A stretch of 64,000 nt of DNA from Alphaproteobacteria bacterium (GTDB lineage: Bacteria; Pseudomonadota; Alphaproteobacteria; UBA828). The notes under the pieces are model-generated. The model did not search any database and was not told the origin of the DNA. It worked only from the letters and a program-made list of their open reading frames with translations. The stretch is from the NCBI GenBank assembly GCA_965237415.1, contig CBDEFM010000002.1:32001-96000 (forward strand), written 5' to 3'. A program made the translations under genes and the position numbers. Position 1 is the stretch's first letter. Each line of letters starts with the position of its first letter. Below are positions 17,567 through 43,462 of the stretch, one piece after another.

Positions 17567-18855
17567 GTATCCGTTCCGTCAGGCCGTGGAACGGTGGGTG
17601 GACAGGAGTGGTAGGCGTCCGCTGAGGAAGGTGATTGGCTCGCTGTGCACGCTGGCTCCATTGGGCGGGCGGAGGATTCCACGGCGTGGCCGAACGGTTA
17701 TCGCGCCAGGCGAAGCCCTGGAGAGGAGGATGACATGAGCTGAAACCTCTCGTAGCGATCCAGCGGGTACGACTCCCGCCCGGCAAAGGCGCAGCCCGCC
17801 AGCCGGAAGCGAGTCTTGCATGGCGTGCGGCAACGCCCGTCGTGAAGCGTAGACAGCAGGTGATGAAGCGCCGCGGTAAGCCTCGAAATCGTAAATGATG
17901 ACGCCTTCATTGTTAATCGTGTGTGGGCAGCACCGGAAGCGCCGCTAATGGCGAGGCGCAACGGGACGTCCGGGGTCGTGGACCGGCGCAAAGTCACGGG
18001 ATGGACCGCCAGGGAACCTGGGAGATCCTGCTCTTGCCCGTGGGCAAGATCGCTGGAAAGGGGACGGCCAGTGTGAACAATCCAGACCCCGGCCCGTCGT
18101 CAGGTCTGCATGGCGGCGGGAGCGCCTTGGCGAACACGAACCCCGGCAGACGCCTGCGGAGCCGGCTGGCGAAATCAATAAGCCGAAGGACATGCAGGAG
18201 CAGGAAGTCGTAGCGCTCTGATAGTACCGCTGAAGGCGGGGAACCGTGGCCATCGGGACCCGCTCGAGGGAAGCGGAGCGTCATCTGCACAGACCCACTG
18301 ATGGGAAACGCTGGAGGAAACGCTGAGTTCCACCAACACGTACACGAAACAGCAGTGGATAGCCGAACAGGCGAGGGAGCATCCGGACCGGGTGTTCACG
18401 TCACTGCACCACCTGATCGACATCGATTGGGTGTCGGAGGCGTACCGACGGACGCGCAAGGATGGCGCGACGGGCATCGACGGCGTGACGGCTGCCGACT
18501 ACGCAAAGGACCTTGAGGCCAATCTCGAAAGCCTCCTGAGCCGGATCAAGTCGGGCAGCTATCGCGCGCCACCGGTGCGCCGCCACTACATCCCGAAGGC
18601 GGACGGCACGAAACGCCTCCTCGGCATCCCGACGTTTGAAGACAAGGTGGCGCAGCGGGCGATCCTGATGCTGCTGGAGCCGATTTACGAGACGGACTTT
18701 CTGCCGTGCTCGTACGGCTTCCGGCGCGGACGGTCAAGCCCACGATGCCCTCAGCGCATTGCGCACGGGCATCATCGAGCAGCGCCAGCGGTGGGTGATC
18801 GATGCCGATATCTCGAAGTACTTCGACTCGATCACACACTCCCACCTCCGGTCAT
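17567..18855 (+). mobile_element. ltrA: Truncated group II intron (class E-like RT), 5' ribozyme plus partial RT; 5' boundary approximate
   Basis: [51 protein letters not shown]. Frameshift near 18738; ends before YADD. Confidence 0.85.
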
Positions 18856-33329: not shown

Positions 33330-33612
33330 GCGGGTAGAGCTCATGACCGCCTTCAACCAGCTACACAGGCAGCGTTAGAGAAGAAGATCGACGAGATCGT
33401 TACAGCTATCCATGAGACCGGCTTCAGCCGCGCTCTTACGGACCGGCTGCACAAGTTCGAGGCCGGCACTAAGAACTGCAACAACGTCTTGCAGCCGTTC
33501 CCCCCAAGATCTCAGACATCCATCCGAATATCGCCGGCATTTACGCCCGGAAGGTCGCATGCCTCGCGGAAGCGTTTGAAAAGCCCGATGAACGGGACGC
33601 GGCTGCGTCAGC
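33330..33612 (+). pseudogene. Serine recombinase-like C-terminal remnant
   Basis: SDIHPNIAGIYARKVACLAEAFEKPDERDAAA. Confidence 0.5.
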
Positions 33613-35513
33613 CAACTACCGCCACGTCATCCATTCCTTGAAGAGGAAGCCGATGGCGCTGCTGAACCTGGTCTACCGCGACGCCCTGTTCCCCCGCGAC
33701 GCTTATCGGCGCTGCTTCGAGGCGGCCCTGGAGCGGTTCACCGAGCGCGAGGCCTGCCGGCTCACGGTGACCCTCCTGGCGCTTGCCCATGAGGAGAACT
33801 GCGAGGCCGAGCTGGCGGCGGCGATCGACGGCATCCTGGACGAGGGGCGGCTACCCGCCCCCAACGACCTCAAGGCGCGCTTCGCGCCGGACCCGGGCAA
33901 GATGCCCAGGATCGACGTCACCAGGACGCATCTGGCCGGCTACGGGTCTCTGCTGAGCGCAGGAAGTGCGTCATGACCGGCAGCGACGACCTCACGGCAA
34001 CCGACCCCAACAAGGTCGATGCCATCAAGCTCTCCCTGATGCTCGCCACCAGCAGCCGATCGAAGCCCGGCCGCGACGTTCCGCCTCCAGAGCGGCCGAG
34101 ATCCTCGTCGATAATCACGGGCTCGTCCCAGCCCAGACCGCGAGCCCGATCCGCAAGGCCGTACTGACGACGGCGGCTCTCGTGGTTGTGCCGCAGCTGG
34201 TCCGGCGTCGACTGCCGAATGTAGACGACCGCCTCGCGTGCCAGATGATCAGGCGCGATCTTGTTCATCGCCCGCCTCCTTCTCCGTGGCCGTCCCGTCC
34301 GCCATGTCCTCCGTCGGGTTCGCTGCCGCTTCGAGCAGCAGCGCCGCCAGTATCGGGATTACCGCCCCTCGCATCGCCGGCGTGAGTGCCGGACCCGGCT
34401 CCAGTAGTTCCAACAGCTCTCCCTGTCTTCCCATGTCGCCCTCCCAAATCCATGCGGGAGGGCGATGGTAGAACAGCGTCGATGTCCGAACGGAGGTCGC
34501 GCAGGGCGTCCACCGTAGCGCGATCCGCGGCTGATCCGTCACCGTCATCGCCGCCGCGTCTGGAAAGCACATCCAGGTCGGTATCTGCGCCAGCGTGCCA
34601 TCCGGCTGGCGGACGACGTAGATCATGGTCCCCTTGAAGCGGTGGCGCCGAACCACTTCCACGCGCTGGCCCGTGCGGGGGTGGAAGGGGTAGTGGATCT
34701 TCGTCGGACCGCCCTGGTATCGGGCAGTGTGTGGCTGTTCCGCCCGGCGCCGGCAAAAGCCATCTTGCCTCTGCCATCGGCCTCGCCCTGGTCGAGAACG
34801 GCTATCGCGTACTCTTCACCCGCACCACCGATCTGGTGCAGCGCCTGCAGGTGGCAAGGCGTGAGCTCGCCCTGGAAAGCCAGCTCGCAAGGCTCGACCG
34901 CTACCATCTTCTGATCCTCGACGACCTCGCCTACGTGCAAAAGGATCAGGCCGAGACCAGCGTCCTCTTCGAGCTCATCTCGGCGCGCTACGAAAGGCGC
35001 TCTCTTCTAATAACCGCGAACCAGCCCTTCGGAGAATGGAACAAGGTGTTCCCGGACGAGACCACTGCGGTGGCCGCCGTCGATCGCCTCGTCCACCACG
35101 CCACAATCCTCGAGATGAACGTCGAGAGCTATCGCCGCCGCGCCGCGCTCGACAGACGAAAAAGGGGACCGGGGCGGCCCGCCAAGATCGCCACCGAGAA
35201 AAACACCACCGAGGACTGAGCCACGCACGGGTGCCGCCCCGGCGGCGCTCACGCTCGCTCCCTGCGGCCCGTCGGCATCTCAGTCGGCGGGCCGCACTTT
35301 ACTCCACGCATCCCGGCCGCAATCCCCCACAGCGATATCGCACCGATCGATCATGCGGACGCTCCGCGACAATCTGTGTGTGTCGCGCCGCGACAATCAA
35401 CGAGACGAAGGCCCTTGCAATGCCCGACGCTGCCCGCAATCATGCGCCCGCCGCTGGCGCCGGGAATCTCACCCTGATTGACGCGCGGCTCTCATCCAGA
35501 TCGTCGCGCTATA
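33613..35513 (+). mobile_element. Disrupted IS21 element: istA 3' part (to 33976), split istB (33973-34043 and 34734-35219), right end
   Basis: YRHVIHSLKRKPMALLNLVYRDALFP; PGAGKSHLASAIG..LILDDL..AVDRLVHH; CGCGACAATC repeats near the end. Confidence 0.85.
34044..34733 (-). mobile_element. Truncated large serine recombinase (34044-34268) with upstream accessory ORF, inside istB
   Basis: MNKIAPDHLAREAVVYIRQST..IDEDLGRSG..RPGFDRLL; upstream KIHYPFHP..QPDGTLAQIPTWM. Confidence 0.8.
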
Positions 35514-36115
35514 AGTGGGCTCGGGTGGGGTGAAGAGGCCGTTCGCGCACTGGCGTGCTGTAGCGGCACCCGATGCTAAGCCTGGTCCGAACCATTTTGT
35601 CGCCTCGGTCACTGATGGCGCGGGTTTCCCGCGACCTCGTTGTGTGCCCAGCATGCTCGGTAGCTGGGAAGTGAAAGTCTTCTATCCAACCTGATGGAGG
35701 TGAAGGATTAGCAAAGCGCAAGGGCATCCCCGCGAGGTGGTGTCTGAAGGAAGCGTGGAGCAAAACCGCGACCTGACGAACAGAAACCGGATATGAGGCA
35801 GGCTTGGTCGGACGAGCGGGCAACGGATCGCGAAGTCCATATCCATCAAGGCCAAGTTTGTAGATCCGGCAGGTGTGCGGGGAAGGCGACCGAGCTTACC
35901 TGGGGAGGCCTGTGCCGTGTTCCAAGTCTGGAACTGAGGGAACTGCAAGGGGACCTGATCGCGGCGCAGGAGTCAGCAGACGGCATAGTAGGTCAGGCAG
36001 TCGGCAAAGCTATTTAGGCACTCCAAGGCCGAGAGGTGGAGCAACAGATAAGCCGAGCCGGTAACGATGGCCGAAGGCCTGAACGATTGGAAGCGGCAAG
36101 TAGGACGGACAACTC

Positions 36116-36923
36116 ATGCGTGGAAAGCGGCAGAACATCCAGTACTCACTGGCCTTGGAACTATCTGAGCGGGGTGAAACCCTGGTCGGCGGCTACCAAG
36201 GGACCGAACCACCTGTGGCGAAGCCCGACCCCGAAAGCCCGGCCTTGGCGGAACAGCTAATGGAGGAGATGTGCGGGCGGGAAAATTGCGAAACTGCGTG
36301 GAAGCACGTTCGAAAGAACAAGGGCGGTCCCGGCGTCGATGGGATGACCATCGACGAGGCCGCGGACTACCTGCGTGAGCACTGGCCAAGCATTCGGTCT
36401 CAACTGCTCGACGGAACCCACCAGCCCCAGCCGGTCAAGAGGGTCGAGATACCCAAGCCGGACGGCGGGGTCAGGAAACTCGGCGTCCCCTGTGTCGTCG
36501 ACAGACTGGTCCAGCAAGCCGTGTTGCAGGTTCTTCAGGCGCAATGGGACCCGACGTTTTCCGAACACAGCTACGGGTTCCGCCCGGGGCGCTCGGCCCA
36601 TCAGGCGGTGGCTCAGGCACAAGCGTATATTGCTGAGGGCTACGGTATCGTGGTTGACATCGACCTCGAAAAATTCTTCGACCGTGTCAACCAGGACCGA
36701 CTGATGGCTCGCGTTGCCGAACGGGTCTCCGACAAACGGGTACTCAAGCTGATCCGCGCCTTTCTCAAGGCCGGAGTGATGGAAGACGGGCTGGTTTATC
36801 CGGTTGACGAGGGGACCCCGCAAGGCGGTCCGCTTTCGCCTCTCCTGAGCAATCTCGTGCTCGATGAACTCGACAGGGAACTGACACGACGCGGCCACCG
36901 GTTCTGCCGGTACGCGGATGACT
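36116..36923 (+). CDS. ltrA: Class C intron RT/maturase, exon 1 (to YADD)
   Basis: GVDG, PVKRVEIPKPDGG.RKLGVP, HSYGFRPGRS, GTPQGGPLSPLLSN, RYADD. Confidence 0.93.
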
Positions 36924-37276
36924 GTGTGCCACGAAGGCACGAGGAGGCTGAGATGATTTAGCCACCGAAGGGCCGTGCTGCACGAGAGATGGGGGTCGGC
37001 CCCCCGGAGCCGCCGTGCAGGCGGAGGCTTCAAACCACCCACTGCTGCTGTGTTCAAGAGACATGGTAGTGAGCGAGTGGGAAAAGGCAGGGCAATACCC
37101 TGTCAGGTAGGGATCGCGGAGTCGAACGCAAGTGAACCACTGTCAACGTGTCGAAAGCGTGTGGACGACGTCAAAACCGAGGGGTAGTCGTTACCTCGGG
37201 ATGAGTTCGGAAGGAACCTGCTTACTGACCGAATGGCGTCCGGCACAAAGGTGGCGAGACCGCGATCCAGGCTCTT

Positions 37277-38871
37277 CGGAACCTGTCAACGACTTTGAGA
37301 CAGTGACGATTGCGATTTACTGAGCAGTTTCTCCTGTTGTGGGTGTCACAGGTAGGTTGATCCAGACGGCTTGGGGAAGGGGATCCGGTTGTGGGATCCC
37401 TCGAACGAAGCGTTCGGGATGACGGGTCCAGGCGGCTTGAAGGGTCCGCCCGCGCTGCTCCAGCACGCTCTGGGTTCGATTGTGATGCACGTCGTCCGGG
37501 GTGAGCATCGCGATCCCGCCATGGCGATGTTCGGTGTTGTACCAAGGGAAGAACGTTCGGCAGAAGGCGATCGCGGCGGTGATGTCGTGGAAGCGGCCAG
37601 GGAAGCCGGGGTGGTACTTCAGGGTCTTGAACTGCGCCTCGGAGAAGGGGTTGTCGTCGGACACCTGAGGGCGGCTCAGTGAACGGGTCACGCCGAGGTC
37701 GGCGAGCAGTTGTGCGGTGCACTTGCTCGTCATCGGCGCGCCGCGGTCGGAGTGCAGGGTGAGCACCTGGGGCTGGACGCCCTGTTTGTGGCAGGTCTCT
37801 TCGATGAGACGACCGGCCAGCGCCGAGTTCTCCCGGTCTGCGACCATCCAGCCGACCGCGTAGCGGCTGAAGATGTCGAGCACGACGTAGAGGTAGAAGT
37901 ACGTCCACTTGGTCGGCCCCAACAGCTTGGTGATGTCCCAGGACCAGGTCTGGTTCGGCGCCGTGGCCACCAGCTCGGGCTTGATGTACTGGGGATGCTC
38001 GCGCTGATTGCGCCGCTCTCGGACCGGCTGATCGGCGGCCAGGATCCGATACATCGTCCGCTCCGAGCACAGGTAATGGCCTTCGTCGAGCAGCGTCGCC
38101 ACGACCTCCGCCGGCGCACGGTCGACGAAGCGCGGGCCGGCGAGCACATCGAGGATCTGCTCGCGCTCGGCTTCACACAGCGCCCGGGCGGGCGTTGGAC
38201 GGGGCTGCCGGTGCCCGGGAGTTGACCTCTGACGACGGTAGAAGGTCGCCCGTGACACGCCCAGTGCTTGGCAGGCCGGCGCCACGCCGACCTGCGCCGC
38301 AAGCGGTTGGACCGCGATCAAGAGCGCGTTCCGTGTTCGAGGTTCAATCCCAGCAGCCCGGCAACTTTTCCCTGCACGTCCAGGATCGTGTGCGCGGTGT
38401 GCAACTCGTGCTCCAGGCGAGCCACTTGCGCCTCGAGCGCGCGCACCTTCGCATCCAGCGGGTTGCGTTCGGCCGGTTTCGCGCCGCGCTTCTTCGCGGC
38501 CAACTCCCGCAGCGAGCCCTTGCGCCGCGCCTTGCGCCAAGCCGTCAGATGCGAGCTGTACAACCCCTCGCGGCGAAGCAGGCGGCCCACCTCGCCGGGC
38601 TGTGTGCAGCGATCCGCCTCCTCCAGAATCCGCAGCCGATACTCTGCGGTGAACTGGCGCCGCTTCGGCTTGGCCACAACCTCCGGGTCCGGGGTCGGTC
38701 TGGCGCGGCCGGCCCTGGGGGCCTCGTCGCTACGCTCCTCGACCCCCAGGGCCGGAACGGAAACCTCATTCAATGTCATCGAGTCTCTCTCTGCGGTCAT
38801 CGGTTTTCACCTCCGCCGCCCTACAGAAATTCCAAAGGTTGCTGGTGTCTCAGTGATGTTGGCAGAGAGGG
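37277..38871 (-). mobile_element. IS3-like element (orfA 38318-38800, orfB 37317-ca.38320) inside the inner intron ribozyme
   Basis: KRRQFTAEYRLRIL; WSWDIT, LHSDRG, DNPFSEAQFKTLK; subterminal inverted repeats; CTT duplicated at 37274 and 38872. Confidence 0.9.
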
Positions 38872-39072
38872 CTTGTGCGGAACGTGGGAACCTGTCGCTT
38901 CGATGCCAAGGAAGAACCGCAAGTGGAGGCCCCACGAGCGGGAGAGTACCGATGCGGAGCACAGGGGCGGAGCGACCCGTAGTAGCGATGAAAGTTCTGT
39001 AATGGGGCTGGAGCGAAGGGGTTGCCCTATGCGGTTCGGGAAGTCGGGGCAACCGGCGACGGGAGGACCTTG

Positions 39073-40317
39073 ATGGACCGGACGAAGCCGTTTCCCATCA
39101 GCAAACGTCAGGTCTGGGAAGCCTGGAAGAAGGTGAAAGCCAATCAGGGTGGGGCGGGGATTGACGGCCAGGCAATAGAAGCGTTCGAGGCCAAGGTTGG
39201 AGACAACCTGTACATGCTTTGGAACCGCATGGCGTCGGGCAGTTATCATCCGTCTCCGGTTCGACGAGTTGAGATTCCCAAGGCGGACGGCGGCGTTCGT
39301 CCGCTGGGGATACCAACGGTGGAGGATCGGGTAGCCCAAACGGTGGTGAAAGAGGTACTGGAGCCGGAACTGGAAAAACACTTTCATTCGGACTCCTACG
39401 GCTATCGGCCGGGGAAATCGGCTCACCAGGCACTGGGGCAGGCGCGAGAGCGCTGCTGGCGAAGTGACTGGGTGCTGGATCTCGATATCAGGTCGTTTTT
39501 CGACACGTTGGATCACGACCTGCTGCTTCGCGCAGTGCGCCGCCACACCGACGAGAACTGGGTGGTGCTGTATATCGAGAGGTGGCTGAAGGCCCCGGTA
39601 ATGCTGCCGAGCGGGGAGGTAGAAGAGCGGGATCGAGGCACGCCCCAAGGGGGTGTCGCAAGTCCGTTGCTTGCCAACCTGTTCCTGCATTATGTGTTCG
39701 ATTTGTGGATGGAGAGGCACTACCCGGCCATCCCGTTCGAGCGTTATGCCGACGATATCGTCTGCCATTGTCGCAGTGAGCGGCAGGCACACCATCTGAA
39801 GGGCGCACTGACACGTCGCTTTGAAGCCTGCGGGCTCGCGCTGCACCGGGAGAAGACGAAGATTGTCTACTGCCAGGACAGCGATCGACGAGGGAAGCAC
39901 CCCGTAACATCCTTTGACTTCCTGGGCTACACGTTTCGGCCCCGGCGGTCGAAGAACAAGTGGGGCGGGTTTTTCGTCAGTTTTAGTCCGGCGATCAGCA
40001 ACAAGGCGGCGAGAGCGATTCGGCGGGAAATCAGGAGTTGGAATCTGCATCGACGCAGTGACAAGAGCCTTGACGACCTTGCCCGAATGTTCAACGCAAC
40101 CATCAGGGGGTGGATCAACTATTACGGGGCCTTTTACAAGTCGACCCTCTTTGCCCCCTTGCGGATGATCGACAGGAGGCTCGCGCTTTGGGCCACGCGC
40201 AAGATGAAGCGTTTTCGGGCGCATCGGAGACGCGCTGCGCAATGGGTTGCCGACTGTGTTCGCCGGGACCCTAACCTGTTCGCACATTGGCGCGTTATTT
40301 ATCGTACGGCTGCATAG
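39073..40317 (+). CDS. ltrA: Group II intron RT/maturase (RmInt1-like, no endonuclease domain), intact
   Basis: KPFPISKRQVWEAWKKVKAN, RPLGIPTVEDR, GTPQGGVASPLLANLFLH, ERYADD, FDFLG, GWINYY. Confidence 0.95.
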   Translation: MDRTKPFPISKRQVWEAWKKVKANQGGAGIDGQAIEAFEAKVGDNLYMLWNRMASGSYHPSPVRRVEIPKADGGVRPLGIPTVEDRVAQTVVKEVLEPELEKHFHSDSYGYRPGKSAHQALGQARERCWRSDWVLDLDIRSFFDTLDHDLLLRAVRRHTDENWVVLYIERWLKAPVMLPSGEVEERDRGTPQGGVASPLLANLFLHYVFDLWMERHYPAIPFERYADDIVCHCRSERQAHHLKGALTRRFEACGLALHREKTKIVYCQDSDRRGKHPVTSFDFLGYTFRPRRSKNKWGGFFVSFSPAISNKAARAIRREIRSWNLHRRSDKSLDDLARMFNATIRGWINYYGAFYKSTLFAPLRMIDRRLALWATRKMKRFRAHRRRAAQWVADCVRRDPNLFAHWRVIYRTAA

Positions 40318-40394
40318 GAGGAGCCGTGTGAGCCGAGAGGTTCAAGCACGGTTCTGTGAGCGCCTCGGGGTGAGATTCCCCGGGGCGACTCGAC

Positions 40395-40969
40395 GTAACA
40401 TCTACGTCCGCAGCCAGCGCGCCGGCGAACGTGTCATGGCCTCCGTGGCCAGGTTCCTGACCACGACGCTACGGCTCAAGGTCAACGAGTCAAAGAGCGC
40501 GGTCGCGCGACCGGAGGAGCGCAAGTTCCTGGGGTTCAGCATCGCGAATGATGGGAGCGAACGGCGCATCGCGCCGCAAGCTCTCGCGAAGTTCAAGGCG
40601 CGAATTCGGGACCTCACAAGCCGGACGCGGGGAATAAGTCTGCACCGGATGATCGAAACGCTAAAGCCATACCTGATGGGCTGGCGCGGCTACTTCGGTT
40701 TCTGCCAGACCCCGCGCGTGCTCACGAACCTGGAAGCGTGGATACGCCGAAGACTGCGTGCGTATCTGTGGCGACAGTGGAACAACGGTCACAAACGCTT
40801 CAAGGAGCTCCGCCGCCGGGGACTCTCAAAGGACCAAGCCGCCATCGCCGCTGGCTCGCCGACGGCGTACTGGCGCATGGCCGGACATGTGGTGGTCCAG
40901 CAGGCCCTACGCAACCACCATTTCGACTCGCTCGGCCTCCCCAGACTCTACACCCCTGCTGCGGCCTAA
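40395..40969 (+). CDS. ltrA: Class C intron RT/maturase, exon 2
   Basis: NIYVRSQRAGERVM..LKVNESKS..KFLGF..GWRGYF..WIRRRLR; 808+575 nt = 461 codons in frame with exon 1. Confidence 0.92.
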
Positions 40970-41120
40970 TTCGGTCGAACCGCCGTGGTACGGACCCGTA
41001 TGCCCGGTGGTGTGGGAGGGGCGGCATCGTGAGATGCCCCCCTATCCCGATCAAGAGAATGGGACTTCGAACATGGTTCCTCCCCGCTCGCGACGGAGAT
41101 GAAACCTGGGAGGATGTTCC

Positions 41121-42539
41121 ATGGCGCGCAAGTCTCGAAGAACCCAGCGCCTCAGGGTGGTGAACCCGGACTGCGCAGGGATCGACATCGGCAAGGACCG
41201 GCATTTCGTGGCGGTCGACCCGGAACGCACCGAGGAGCCGGTGCGTTCGTTCGGCGCCTTTACCCGCGATCTGGAGGAGATGGCGGCGTGGCTAGCGTCG
41301 TGTGGGGTGACCAAGGTGGCGATGGAATCGACCTCGGTCTACTGGATAGCGGTCTACGAGACGCTGGAGCGCGCGGGCTTCGAGGTGATGCTGGTGCCGC
41401 CGCGCATGACGAAGCAGATCGGCGGGCGCAAGAGCGACGTGTTGGACTGCCAGTGGATCTGGCAGCTGATGTCCTACGGCCTGCTGCGGGGAGCGTTCCG
41501 TCCGGGCGACGAGGTTTGCCCGCTGCGCTCCTACGCACGCCAGATGAGGCGGCTGACCGGGGACCGCTCCCGCTGCGTCCTGCACATGCAGAAGGCGCTG
41601 ACCGAGATGAACGTCAAGCTCGACTCGGTGATCGCCAACATCGTGGGACTGACCGGCCAGCGCATCCTGCGCGCGATCATCGACGGCGAGCGTGACCCAG
41701 AGCGCCTGGCGACGCTCCGCCACCGGGGCATCAAGGCCGACGCCGATACGATCGCCGCGAGCCTTCAGGGGACGTGGCGTGAGGAGCATCTGTTCGCCCT
41801 CGAACAGGCCATGCAGCGCTACGACTTCCTGACCCAGCAGATCGACGACTGCGAGGCCCGGGTGATGGCCGAGATCGAGCGCCTGACACCGCCGGACGAT
41901 CTCCCGGACGGCGGCGCACCGGACCATGCCCCCGGCACGACCTCCGAAACCGCGTCGAGCCGCTCTGCGAACGCCGCAAGCAACTACACCGGCAAGGAGG
42001 GCATCCAGGCCCTGGCGTTGCGCGGAATGATGGGCGTCGACCTCACCGCGATCCCCACCATCGGTCCCGGTACCGCACTGGTGATCGCCTCGGAGATCGG
42101 CCCGGACTTCTCCGCCTTCCCCTCCGCCCAGCACTTCTGCTCCTGGCTTGCGCTCGCGCCGGGAACCAGGATCAGCGGCGGCAAGAACCTCCCCGGCAAG
42201 TCCCCGAAGGCGGTCAACCCCGTCGGGCAGGCCCTGCGCATGGCGGCCATGGCCGCGCGCCGCAGCGAGACCTTCATCGGCGCCAAGCACCGCGCAAGGC
42301 TCGCCCGAATGGACACCCCCGTTGCGATCAAGGCGACCGCCCGCGAACTCGCCTGCCTGATCTACCTCATGGTGACCGAAGGCCAGAAATACGTCGAGCA
42401 GGGCATCGACGCCTACGAGAAGCGGCGCCTCAACAGAAAGTTCGCTCATCTCGACCGCCAAGCCCGAAAACTCGGGCTCCAACTCGTCCCGGCACCGCAA
42501 AACGACGAAACGCAAAACTCAATGCCGTCAACTGCTTAG
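41121..42539 (+). CDS. IS110-family DEDD recombinase/transposase, intact
   Basis: CAGIDIGK, MESTSVYW, KSDVLD, IPTIG..IASEIG, SWLALAP..ISGGK; GGAGG RBS. Confidence 0.95.
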   Translation: MARKSRRTQRLRVVNPDCAGIDIGKDRHFVAVDPERTEEPVRSFGAFTRDLEEMAAWLASCGVTKVAMESTSVYWIAVYETLERAGFEVMLVPPRMTKQIGGRKSDVLDCQWIWQLMSYGLLRGAFRPGDEVCPLRSYARQMRRLTGDRSRCVLHMQKALTEMNVKLDSVIANIVGLTGQRILRAIIDGERDPERLATLRHRGIKADADTIAASLQGTWREEHLFALEQAMQRYDFLTQQIDDCEARVMAEIERLTPPDDLPDGGAPDHAPGTTSETASSRSANAASNYTGKEGIQALALRGMMGVDLTAIPTIGPGTALVIASEIGPDFSAFPSAQHFCSWLALAPGTRISGGKNLPGKSPKAVNPVGQALRMAAMAARRSETFIGAKHRARLARMDTPVAIKATARELACLIYLMVTEGQKYVEQGIDAYEKRRLNRKFAHLDRQARKLGLQLVPAPQNDETQNSMPSTA

Positions 42540-43462
42540 GCAACTGTTACTCAAGAGCGCGCTTTGTTGACCCCCCGCAATCCAGCCAGATCATTGGGTT
42601 ACCGCGCCGATCGGCACCGAACCCGTGCGCCGATCAACAGTCGATCCCTCGCCGGAGACCGTCGAACACTATCGCGTCCAGGTTCGAACCTATCTCGACA
42701 TGACCGGCGCCGACCGGGGCTTGATCGTCATGATGACCGGCGGGAGGGTCGTCGAAATCCGTGGCCAGGGATGACGGATATAAGGCGGTGGGAGCGTGAC
42801 AGCTTCCGGGGGCGGAGATCGCTCTCGCGAGGCCCGGCGAGCGGAGAACGGATGAAGCGGCGGTGATCGTGGCAAGCCAGGTGAGAGCCAGCTAAATTGG
42901 TTTCCACACCAGAGACGGGCGACGGAAGAATGGCCGAGTCTGGATTTCCGACGTTTTGCTCTGCCGACTTGCGCTTTATCGGCGACATGTTCTCCGACCC
43001 GCTGACCAGGGCCATCCGAAACGACATACTCTCGTTTCGCGCACCAGTCTGGTCCGAGGATGCACGCCGCGTCCTGACCGTACTTGGCGACGGGCGGTTT
43101 GATGCCGTGGCCGTTGCGATCCGGAGAGGCGCTCTGCGTTTCGCCGTGACGCCGGACTGGTCCTCGGGGATTCAGGCGATCGAGAGCGTTTTCGCGCTGA
43201 AGCGCCGGGCGCATCTGTTCCGGGCCGCGCCTTCGGTAACCTGGTTGTTAGCGACGGCTTAGGAATGCGCGTATTTGCTGCATTTCTGGAGTTGGACGTG
43301 GTCGGCGGTTGATGCTGACGATCAATCCGAGGTGCCTCCAGGGTGCGTCATCGACATCGGGGTCGCGGCGGTAGCCGAGGGATCGCGCGACGCCTTCGAG
43401 GGGATAGGCTCTCAGGGTCTCGGCCTGCACCCGCCCGTACCATGGCGAGAGACGATCTATGA

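Follow-up and report, generated by a model that had tools for sequence, protein, structure and literature searches.

Bridge RNAs guide a new class of programmable recombinases encoded by insertion sequences (IS) of the IS110 family, and natural interference with them by other mobile elements is little known. In the system described for IS621, the left target and left donor guides pair with the bottom strand and therefore read as the top strand, core included (PMC11208160). Group IIC introns are described as recognizing a 5' exon defined by a stem-loop plus a short intron-binding site 1 (IBS1) (PMC1702495), and for the group II intron RmInt1 splicing efficiency has been proposed to limit the spread of the host element (PMC4238363). 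Here we analyze a locus in which elements of these kinds are combined. The stretch of DNA (the window) comprises 64,000 nucleotides (nt) from an Alphaproteobacteria bacterium of lineage UBA828 (contig CBDEFM010000002.1, positions 32,001 to 96,000); coordinates below are those of the window, on the forward (+) strand unless stated otherwise. The lists of open reading frames (ORFs) and the Pfam and Rfam matches resolve 34.7-42.6 kb into a stack of mobile elements, in which the left end of an IS110-family element is interrupted by a group II intron. The best explanation of the locus as a whole, to which we assign a probability of roughly 85%, is that a group IIC intron homed into the bridge-RNA gene of the IS110 element at a conserved hairpin, and that the copy in the window is a fossil of this arrangement.

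The IS110 left end lies in two parts. The first (35514-35641) is a remnant carrying the 5' part of the bridge-RNA core; the second (41052-41120) holds the rest of the left donor guide, the 3' helix strands and the ribosome-binding site, and the intron that separates them starts with GTGTG at 35642 and ends with ..GAT at 41051. An intact recombinase gene of 472 codons follows (41121-42539; Pfam DEDD_Tnp_IS110 7e-22, Transposase_20 1e-12), whose two domains (PF01548, 78.3 bits; PF02371, 48.7 bits) both exceed their cut-offs and give the DEDD plus Tnp architecture of the IS110 group. Related loci were fetched by their transposase, yielding 576 candidate stretches, 522 confirmed relatives and 79 distinct loci that were kept; 26 loci in one other genome (OZ253557.1) encode recombinases 96-98% identical to that of the window. 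By BLAST, 110 matches to 35518-35641 extend to the junction, and 58 of these (38 loci) continue at the next base into a match to 41052-41200. One match, in locus L039, resumes after 1939 nt, and the remaining 51 come from more diverged lineages whose second match was trimmed by BLAST and whose continuity is visible in the left-end alignment described below. The remnant itself is 96.8% identical to positions 2807-2931 of intact copies, which run on into the equivalent of 41052, and contigs from four public sequencing runs (three RNA libraries and one of DNA) directly join 35640 to 41051. Homologous IS110 left ends thus do include the region matched by 35518-35641, and joining 35641 to 41052, as proposed in a first-pass annotation of this DNA, restores a natural sequence that intact relatives carry as one left end. 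That annotation was also right to place a hairpin 8 nt before the intron and to describe it as having no terminator U-tract: CGCGGG-TTT-CCCGCG (35619-35633) is followed by the 8-nt spacer ACCTCGTT (35634-35641) with no T-run. The likeness that it saw between the restored junction and the predicted donor junction holds for one half, since TTCAAGAG across the junction does resemble the right end CTCAAGAG (42550-42557), because the intron sits inside the left donor guide; the half involving TGGG is a coincidence.

Covariation between the left end and the sequences flanking the element indicates that the intron interrupts a bridge-RNA gene. We aligned left ends from 22 lineages, with recombinases 59-98% identical to that of the window, and compared each alignment column by coordinates with the flanks and ends, taking one flank per lineage. 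The left target guide, TGCTAAG (35574-35580), which ends in the core dinucleotide AG, occupies columns 159-165 and corresponds to the last 7 nt of the left flank; the identity per position is 20, 21, 22, 21, 21, 22 and 22 of 22 lineages. Columns 159-163 stand out against the left flank with a mutual information of 1.36-1.81 bits, versus 0.91 bits for the best unrelated column. The left donor guide, made up of T35641 and CAAGAG at 41052-41057 (columns 231-237), corresponds to the last 7 nt of the right end with a per-position identity of 22, 22, 21, 22, 22, 22 and 22. Five donor-guide 7-mers occur (TCAAGAG, TCGAGAG, TCGGGAG, TTGAGAG and ATGAAAG), and the sole mismatch is in a frameshifted copy, L056. 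The alignment of IS110 left ends, suggested with the original annotation as a way of mapping the guides relative to the intron, thereby located both left guides, each covarying with the flank or the right end in 20-22 of the 22 lineages, and on this sequence evidence the two guides are identified and the interrupted left end is taken to encode a bridge RNA.

Another 7-mer, GCGTGCT, lies upstream of the target guide and, in one lineage, matches some right flanks as their reverse complement; it was rejected as a guide because it is part of a helix conserved across lineages with differing flanks. Right flanks vary widely within a lineage. In several loci (L019, L022 at ~2667-2733, L026 and L014), one IS110 copy has landed in the left target guide of another (..CCCGATGTTAAG|CCTCCACC..). 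Since the guide reads like the target, the bridge-RNA gene itself mimics a target site, giving nested IS-in-IS arrangements.

The aligned left ends also share a predicted secondary structure. The RNAalifold consensus contains closing helix 1 (columns 107-113/263-269), helix 4 (columns 174-180/254-260) and four local helices, with 36 pairs in total. In this structure 97.4% of the cells are paired, and sliding the partners by 1-3 columns lowers this share to 37-50%. Compensatory changes are seen at nine pairs, and the covariation score was reached by none of 500 shuffles, figures that are somewhat flattered by the derivation of the structure from the same alignment that was used to score it. The single-sequence fold has a z-score of -2.5. 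The 5' strand of helix 1 (35524-35530) pairs with 41082-41088 across the intron and includes two pairs with compensatory changes (in 9 and 5 sequences), and the 5' strand of helix 4 (35589-35595) pairs with 41073-41079, likewise across the intron, with compensatory changes in four of its seven pairs and 99.3% of cells paired. Helix 6 is the CGCGGG-TTT-CCCGCG hairpin at 35619-35633, which forms the stem-loop of the IIC intron target; it is paired in 100% of cells, with two compensatory pairs (columns 206-211/218-223), and the spacer ACCTCGTT that follows it is near-invariant across the 22 lineages. The 3' strand of helix 1 (CCUCCCC) is in addition complementary to the ribosome-binding site of the recombinase, GGGAGG (41080-41115; columns 261-296), and this alternative pairing could couple bridge-RNA folding to translation.

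The insertion point of the intron, between alignment columns 231 and 232, separates the first base (T35641) of the 7-nt left donor guide from the other six and falls between the two strands of helix 1 and of helix 4. Because the insertion splits the donor guide and these two helices, an unspliced transcript would be without the complete guide, and neither long-range helix could form. The last 4 nt of ACCTCGTT, CGTT (35638-35641), make up the predicted IBS1 and are exactly complementary to the AACG loop of exon-binding site 1 (EBS1) of the outer intron at 35822-35825. This loop is the exact complement of the exon end in four of six alignable introns, the other two requiring a G-U pair or a one-base shift. 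The protein of this intron, 460 amino acids (aa) long where intact in L039, matches the GsI-IIC reverse transcriptase (RT) over its full length with 488 bits and the E.r. IIC maturase with 333 bits, versus 132 and 130 bits for IIB and IIA proteins, and its Pfam domains are RVT_1 and GIIM only. A match to RF00029 (30.5 bits against a gathering score of 40; E 1.4e-4 with 191 nt searched) ends exactly at 41051, domain 5 being four bases shorter than in the RF00029 model. Relatives of the intron were sought in 401 genomes sampled from the class, 15 of which gave a match; seven related intron loci in six genomes are 78-90% identical over the first 160 nt. In all seven, a GC-rich hairpin ends 6-10 nt before the intron start, the last 45 nt folding with -17 to -29 kcal/mol; in three of them a terminator-like T-run follows the hairpin. 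The genome of one relative, L099, is flagged as unpublished, and the hairpin spacing holds independently of it. With protein scores to the GsI-IIC RT far above those to IIB and IIA proteins and with relatives that follow hairpins, some of them terminators, we assign the outer intron to group IIC, in agreement with the class C identity first proposed.

The 5410 nt of 35642-41051, initially read as one intron, are instead three nested elements. In L039, the insert at the same position is 1939 nt long and corresponds to window positions 35642-36923 (99.8% identity) and 40395-41051 (100% over 657 nt); the extra 3471 nt of the window (36924-40394), absent from L039, lie in the YADD codons of the outer RT. 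The 5' part of the outer IIC intron (35642-36923) comprises domains 1-4, with an RF02001 match of 140 bits at 35726-35895, and the N-terminal 269 RT codons (ORF from 36116; Pfam RVT_1), and its 3' part (40395-41051) comprises the maturase domain (Pfam GIIM; stop at 40969) and domains 5-6 (40978-41051), on which the 30.5-bit RF00029 match falls. The outer RT gene is consequently read as two ORF pieces, 36116-36961 and 40247-40969. Between them lies a second, inner group II intron, which starts with GTGTG and ends at an RF00029 match: its 5' part (36924-37273) carries RF01999 (122 bits, 36991-37108), and its 3' part (38872-40394) carries an RT/maturase ORF of 431 codons (39022-40317; Pfam RVT_1 and GIIM) and domains 5-6 (40319-40394; RF00029, 55.8 bits, ending at 40394). 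The inner-intron protein scores 176 bits to IIC RTs versus 122 to a IIB protein, scores that do not settle its class. An IS3-family insertion sequence on the minus strand (37274-38871; orfA 38318-38800, orfB 37317-38540; Pfam HTH_Tnp_1, rve and rve_3) lies within the inner intron. Three empty-site joints, 35640 to 41051, 36923 to 40395 and 37273 to 38872, are found in the contigs of all four runs; the IS3 joint skips 1598 nt, and 3 nt fit either side. The arrangement is accordingly best described as a twintron, an inner intron within the outer intron, the inner one being split by the IS3-family element.

Comparison of many copies revises the ends of the IS110 element. The intact element is 1707 bp long, begins with CCTCCACC.. 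and ends with ..GTTACTCAAGAG; its left end spans ~270 nt and its right end 18 nt. The left end had first been placed at 35516, with a leader of ~197 nt and a donor junction that included TGGG, whereas intact copies extend 77 nt further to a full leader of ~270 nt, and the true donor junction is CTCAAGAG|CCTCCACC. Intact copies are flanked by TGTTGTTAAG on the left and CRCG.. on the right, the left flank ending in ..AAG and the right end in ..GAG, with the core dinucleotide AG at both junctions. The target consensus, TGTTGTYAAG|CRCGC, is the start of a ~95-nt repeat that is present at four empty sites in the window's own genome, one of which (L005) carries TTGCTAAG. In the window, the right end ..GTTACTCAAGAG (42540-42557) contains the left donor sequence and closes with the core AG (42556-42557), and varied flanks lie beyond the same end in many copies. 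The right part of the target, belonging to the ~95-nt repeat, occupies 42558-42650, and the similarity to the other members of this genome's repeat family begins directly after the IS110 right end. The repeat family (GTGTTGTYAAGCRCGCTTTGTTGACCCCCCGC..., window 42556-42650; L002-L005) has five copies here and also flanks IS110 copies in another genome. Two further features of the ends were seen among the relatives. Head-to-tail tandem IS110 arrays with a 1707-bp period occur in L023, L028, L033 and further loci of OZ253557.1; in these the right end abuts the next left end and the donor junction is kept in the chromosome. In several lineages (right junctions of L075, L079, L082 and L059), the core AG is expanded to (AG)n, up to ~12 units, right after ..CTCAAGAG.

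The copy in the window is without the first 77 nt of the left end, which in intact copies start with CCTCCACC. An IS21-family element, of which the right part and right end occupy 34740-35513 (truncated istB ORF 34731-35219; Pfam IstB_IS21), ends at 35513 and abuts the IS110 remnant. Positions 35230-35513 are 100% identical to two other copies in the genome; identity stops at 35513, the three copies have three different downstream flanks, and run X18 shows loose ends at 35513. The missing 77 nt were sought in the window and in the whole assembled genome (completeness 96%) and were not found. Since the first 77 nt of the left end have been replaced by the IS21 element, the copy lacks a left terminus and is unable to act as a donor, and we judge it from its sequence to be dead. 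The IS21-family copy (33606-35513) is itself rearranged relative to its sister L007, two matching blocks being separated by an unrelated 34048-34739.

The same insertion position recurs in other IS110 copies. The composite in L039 is intact, with a complete left end, a 460-codon intron ORF and the 472-codon recombinase ORF. Between it and the window, the intron differs at 3 of 1939 positions and the IS110 sequence at 58 of 1631 (Fisher p 1e-16); the IS110 sequences of the window, L039 and the intron-less L016 are mutually ~97% identical. A third case was found by a pattern search in the taxonomic order of the window (49 genomes): G435, from the same genus as the window genome, has a complete left end of another variant, followed by the first 410 nt of the intron and then by an unrelated insertion. 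Compared with L039, G435 has no differences in these 410 nt of intron and 8 in 201 nt of left end (p 1e-4), and its genome also holds intron-less IS110 copies. A young intron is thus found in older IS110 hosts that have diverged by ~3-4%, always at one exact position, for which repeated retrohoming is the best explanation. The hairpin and the IBS1 CGTT would have been used repeatedly, in three IS110 variants with near-identical introns, which bears out the suggestion that a bridge-RNA hairpin is an intron target; the recurrence itself is seen directly in the sequences and points to repeated homing. Insertions other than introns interrupt this left end as well, in the 3' strand of helix 1 and in the loop of the intron-target hairpin (L015, 272-2956; L069, upstream of 2930), and other mobile elements seem to land in the left end frequently.

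Based on these comparisons, we propose the following sequence of events. An IS110-family element would encode a bridge RNA in its ~270-nt left end, and a mobile group IIC intron would insert, in sense orientation, into the DNA of this gene. The conserved GC hairpin of the bridge RNA would stand in for the terminator stem-loop used by relatives of the intron, together with the 4-nt IBS1 CGTT, 8 nt downstream of the hairpin; we infer that the feature recognized is the hairpin in single-stranded DNA. From then on, neither the bridge RNA nor the recombinase mRNA leader would be made whole except via splicing, and the same position would serve as a recurrent homing site in three IS110 variants. The copy in the window would subsequently have decayed, the IS21 element taking its first 77 nt and the RT gene being split by the second intron, itself split by the IS3-family element. 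With its left end truncated and its RT gene doubly broken, gating by splicing cannot apply in the window. For intact composites such as L039, we estimate it to be unlikely, if well short of negligible, that a working bridge RNA is regained through splicing. Somewhat more doubtful still is the fuller version, in which composites of the L039 type assemble their bridge RNA only after splicing, the retroelement acting as a switch of the recombinase and the hairpin as a dedicated homing site in one co-regulated unit.

Several observations weigh against this account, in whole or in part. No column rose above background for a right target guide or a right donor guide in the 22-lineage scan; the Rfam search of the intact left end returned best matches of E at least 0.48 to unrelated families, Rfam holding no bridge-RNA family; and scans for sigma-70 promoters and terminators in the left end and in the tandem right-end/left-end junction gave no sites. 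The genomes are assembled from metagenomes, so nested repeats could be misassembled, though the three independent empty-site joints fit the nest exactly. Only three instances are known, and two of them, the window and G435 with its intron cut after 410 nt, are decayed; the intron is present in 1 of 107 motif-found left ends of the fetched loci. A search for the intron elsewhere in the genomes of the window and of L039 found only the IS110 copy in each, every carrier genome examined has a single intron-bearing copy, and two exact-pattern scans of a metagenome contig collection, made with a specific and a degenerate form of the left-end/intron junction, gave no matches. Finally, the joined form present in the three RNA libraries occurs also in the DNA run and carries the base of an intron-less lineage, 35576 C>T; the joined contigs therefore reflect intron-less DNA copies and are no evidence of splicing.

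The insertion may be a dead-end hit that disables the IS110 element: splicing would be too inefficient to give back the bridge RNA, nothing would be gated and the copies would decay; we regard this as nearly an even chance. Each of the three intron-bearing copies is the only one in its genome, with no sign of expansion, whereas intron-less lineages reach dozens of copies per genome, as in OZ253557.1 with its 26 loci and tandem copies, and IIC introns are described as self-splicing in vitro chiefly by hydrolysis, with side products (PMC1702495). Set against this are the fully intact composite of L039, the sense orientation of the intron, the presence of the 5' exon hairpin and IBS1 that IIC splicing needs, and the precedent of RmInt1 in ISRm2011-2, a known intron that still splices within an insertion sequence (PMC4238363).

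Alternatively, recurrence might reflect one ancestral insertion, after which transposition of IS110 or horizontal transfer spread the composite, without the site being preferred. The identical insertion point in all three cases, the near identity of the intron copies and the origin of two carriers from one genus would all be expected from such a history. It is nonetheless improbable, as the divergence of the host IS110 sequences exceeds that of the intron at least 20-fold in the comparisons with L039 given above, and the three left ends are distinct variants, the copies of the window and L039 being no closer to each other than to the intron-less L016. This pattern fits a young intron entering older, diverged copies, although recombination between copies could blur it. 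The leader might also be no guide RNA at all, serving the transposase gene only as a structured 5' untranslated region or as a subterminal repeat bound by protein. This would suit the lack of an Rfam match and of right-hand guides and the possible pairing of CCUCCCC with the ribosome-binding site, yet we consider it very improbable, since amid constant neighboring columns two distinct 7-nt segments vary in step with the left flank and the right end across many sequences, behavior that defines bridge-RNA guides and would be unexpected for a plain leader.

Outside the mobile-element stack, the window carries a third group II intron signature, RF02005 (group-II-D1D4-6), at 17770-17985 with 122.5 bits.

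Homing of a IIC intron into the IS110 bridge-RNA gene, which we continue to prefer, would mean that in nature a conserved hairpin of a bridge RNA is targeted time and again by a self-splicing retroelement, with the donor guide split as a result. If splicing restores the RNA, this would be a guide RNA gated by an intron in nature, on which conditional bridge recombinases might be modeled; if splicing fails, IIC introns would act as natural inactivators of IS110 elements. In either case, a structured RNA gene would join terminators and attC sites among the known targets of IIC introns. The analysis additionally yields, for a lineage of IS110 recombinases that are long (472 aa), a well-supported bridge-RNA model comprising target guide, donor guide and AG core. 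No case of an intron within a bridge RNA was found in titles and abstracts of the literature, where supplementary tables could still list cases, and the word "intron" is absent from the available portion of a preprint on expanded IS110 loci.

The locus shares several properties with the bridge-RNA system of IS621 and IS110 elements as outlined by Durrant et al. (2024, PMC11208160). The noncoding left end lies upstream of a DEDD/Tnp recombinase and encodes a structured RNA; the guides carry the top-strand left target and left donor, including the core dinucleotide, and stand ~70 nt apart. Unlike IS621 as described there, the recombinase is longer (472 aa), the left end is longer (~270 nt) and the core is AG; the target guide lies 3' of a hairpin in the predicted fold instead of on the 5' side of a simple internal loop; and the RNA gene is interrupted by an intron, with only the left-hand guides located.

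RmInt1 is not known to be a class C intron. Like RmInt1 in ISRm2011-2 of Sinorhizobium meliloti, as reported in PMC4238363, the intron described here is a group II intron natively housed in an insertion sequence; RmInt1, however, splits the coding region for a transposase from an unrelated IS family, whereas here the guide RNA and the leader of an RNA-guided recombinase are affected. With the group IIC introns found after terminators (B.h.I1, Toor et al. 2006, PMC1702495; GsI-IIC, 6AR1; E.r. IIC, 7UIM), the outer intron has in common its small size, an RT/maturase without an endonuclease domain, a position a few nt downstream of a GC stem-loop, a short IBS1-EBS1 pairing and a shortened domain 5. 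It differs from these introns in that its stem-loop has no T-run and is a conserved helix of a guide-RNA gene inside another mobile element, and in that it is inserted within a functional RNA instead of after a gene. The IIC-attC introns of integron attC sites, as summarized in PMC7923331, offer a parallel in targeting, being a IIC lineage directed to the folded hairpin of another element's recombination site; in that case, though, attC is a DNA recombination site and not an RNA gene, with no splicing-dependent product, whereas in the IS110 left end the hairpin belongs to a predicted guide RNA that splicing would have to make whole.

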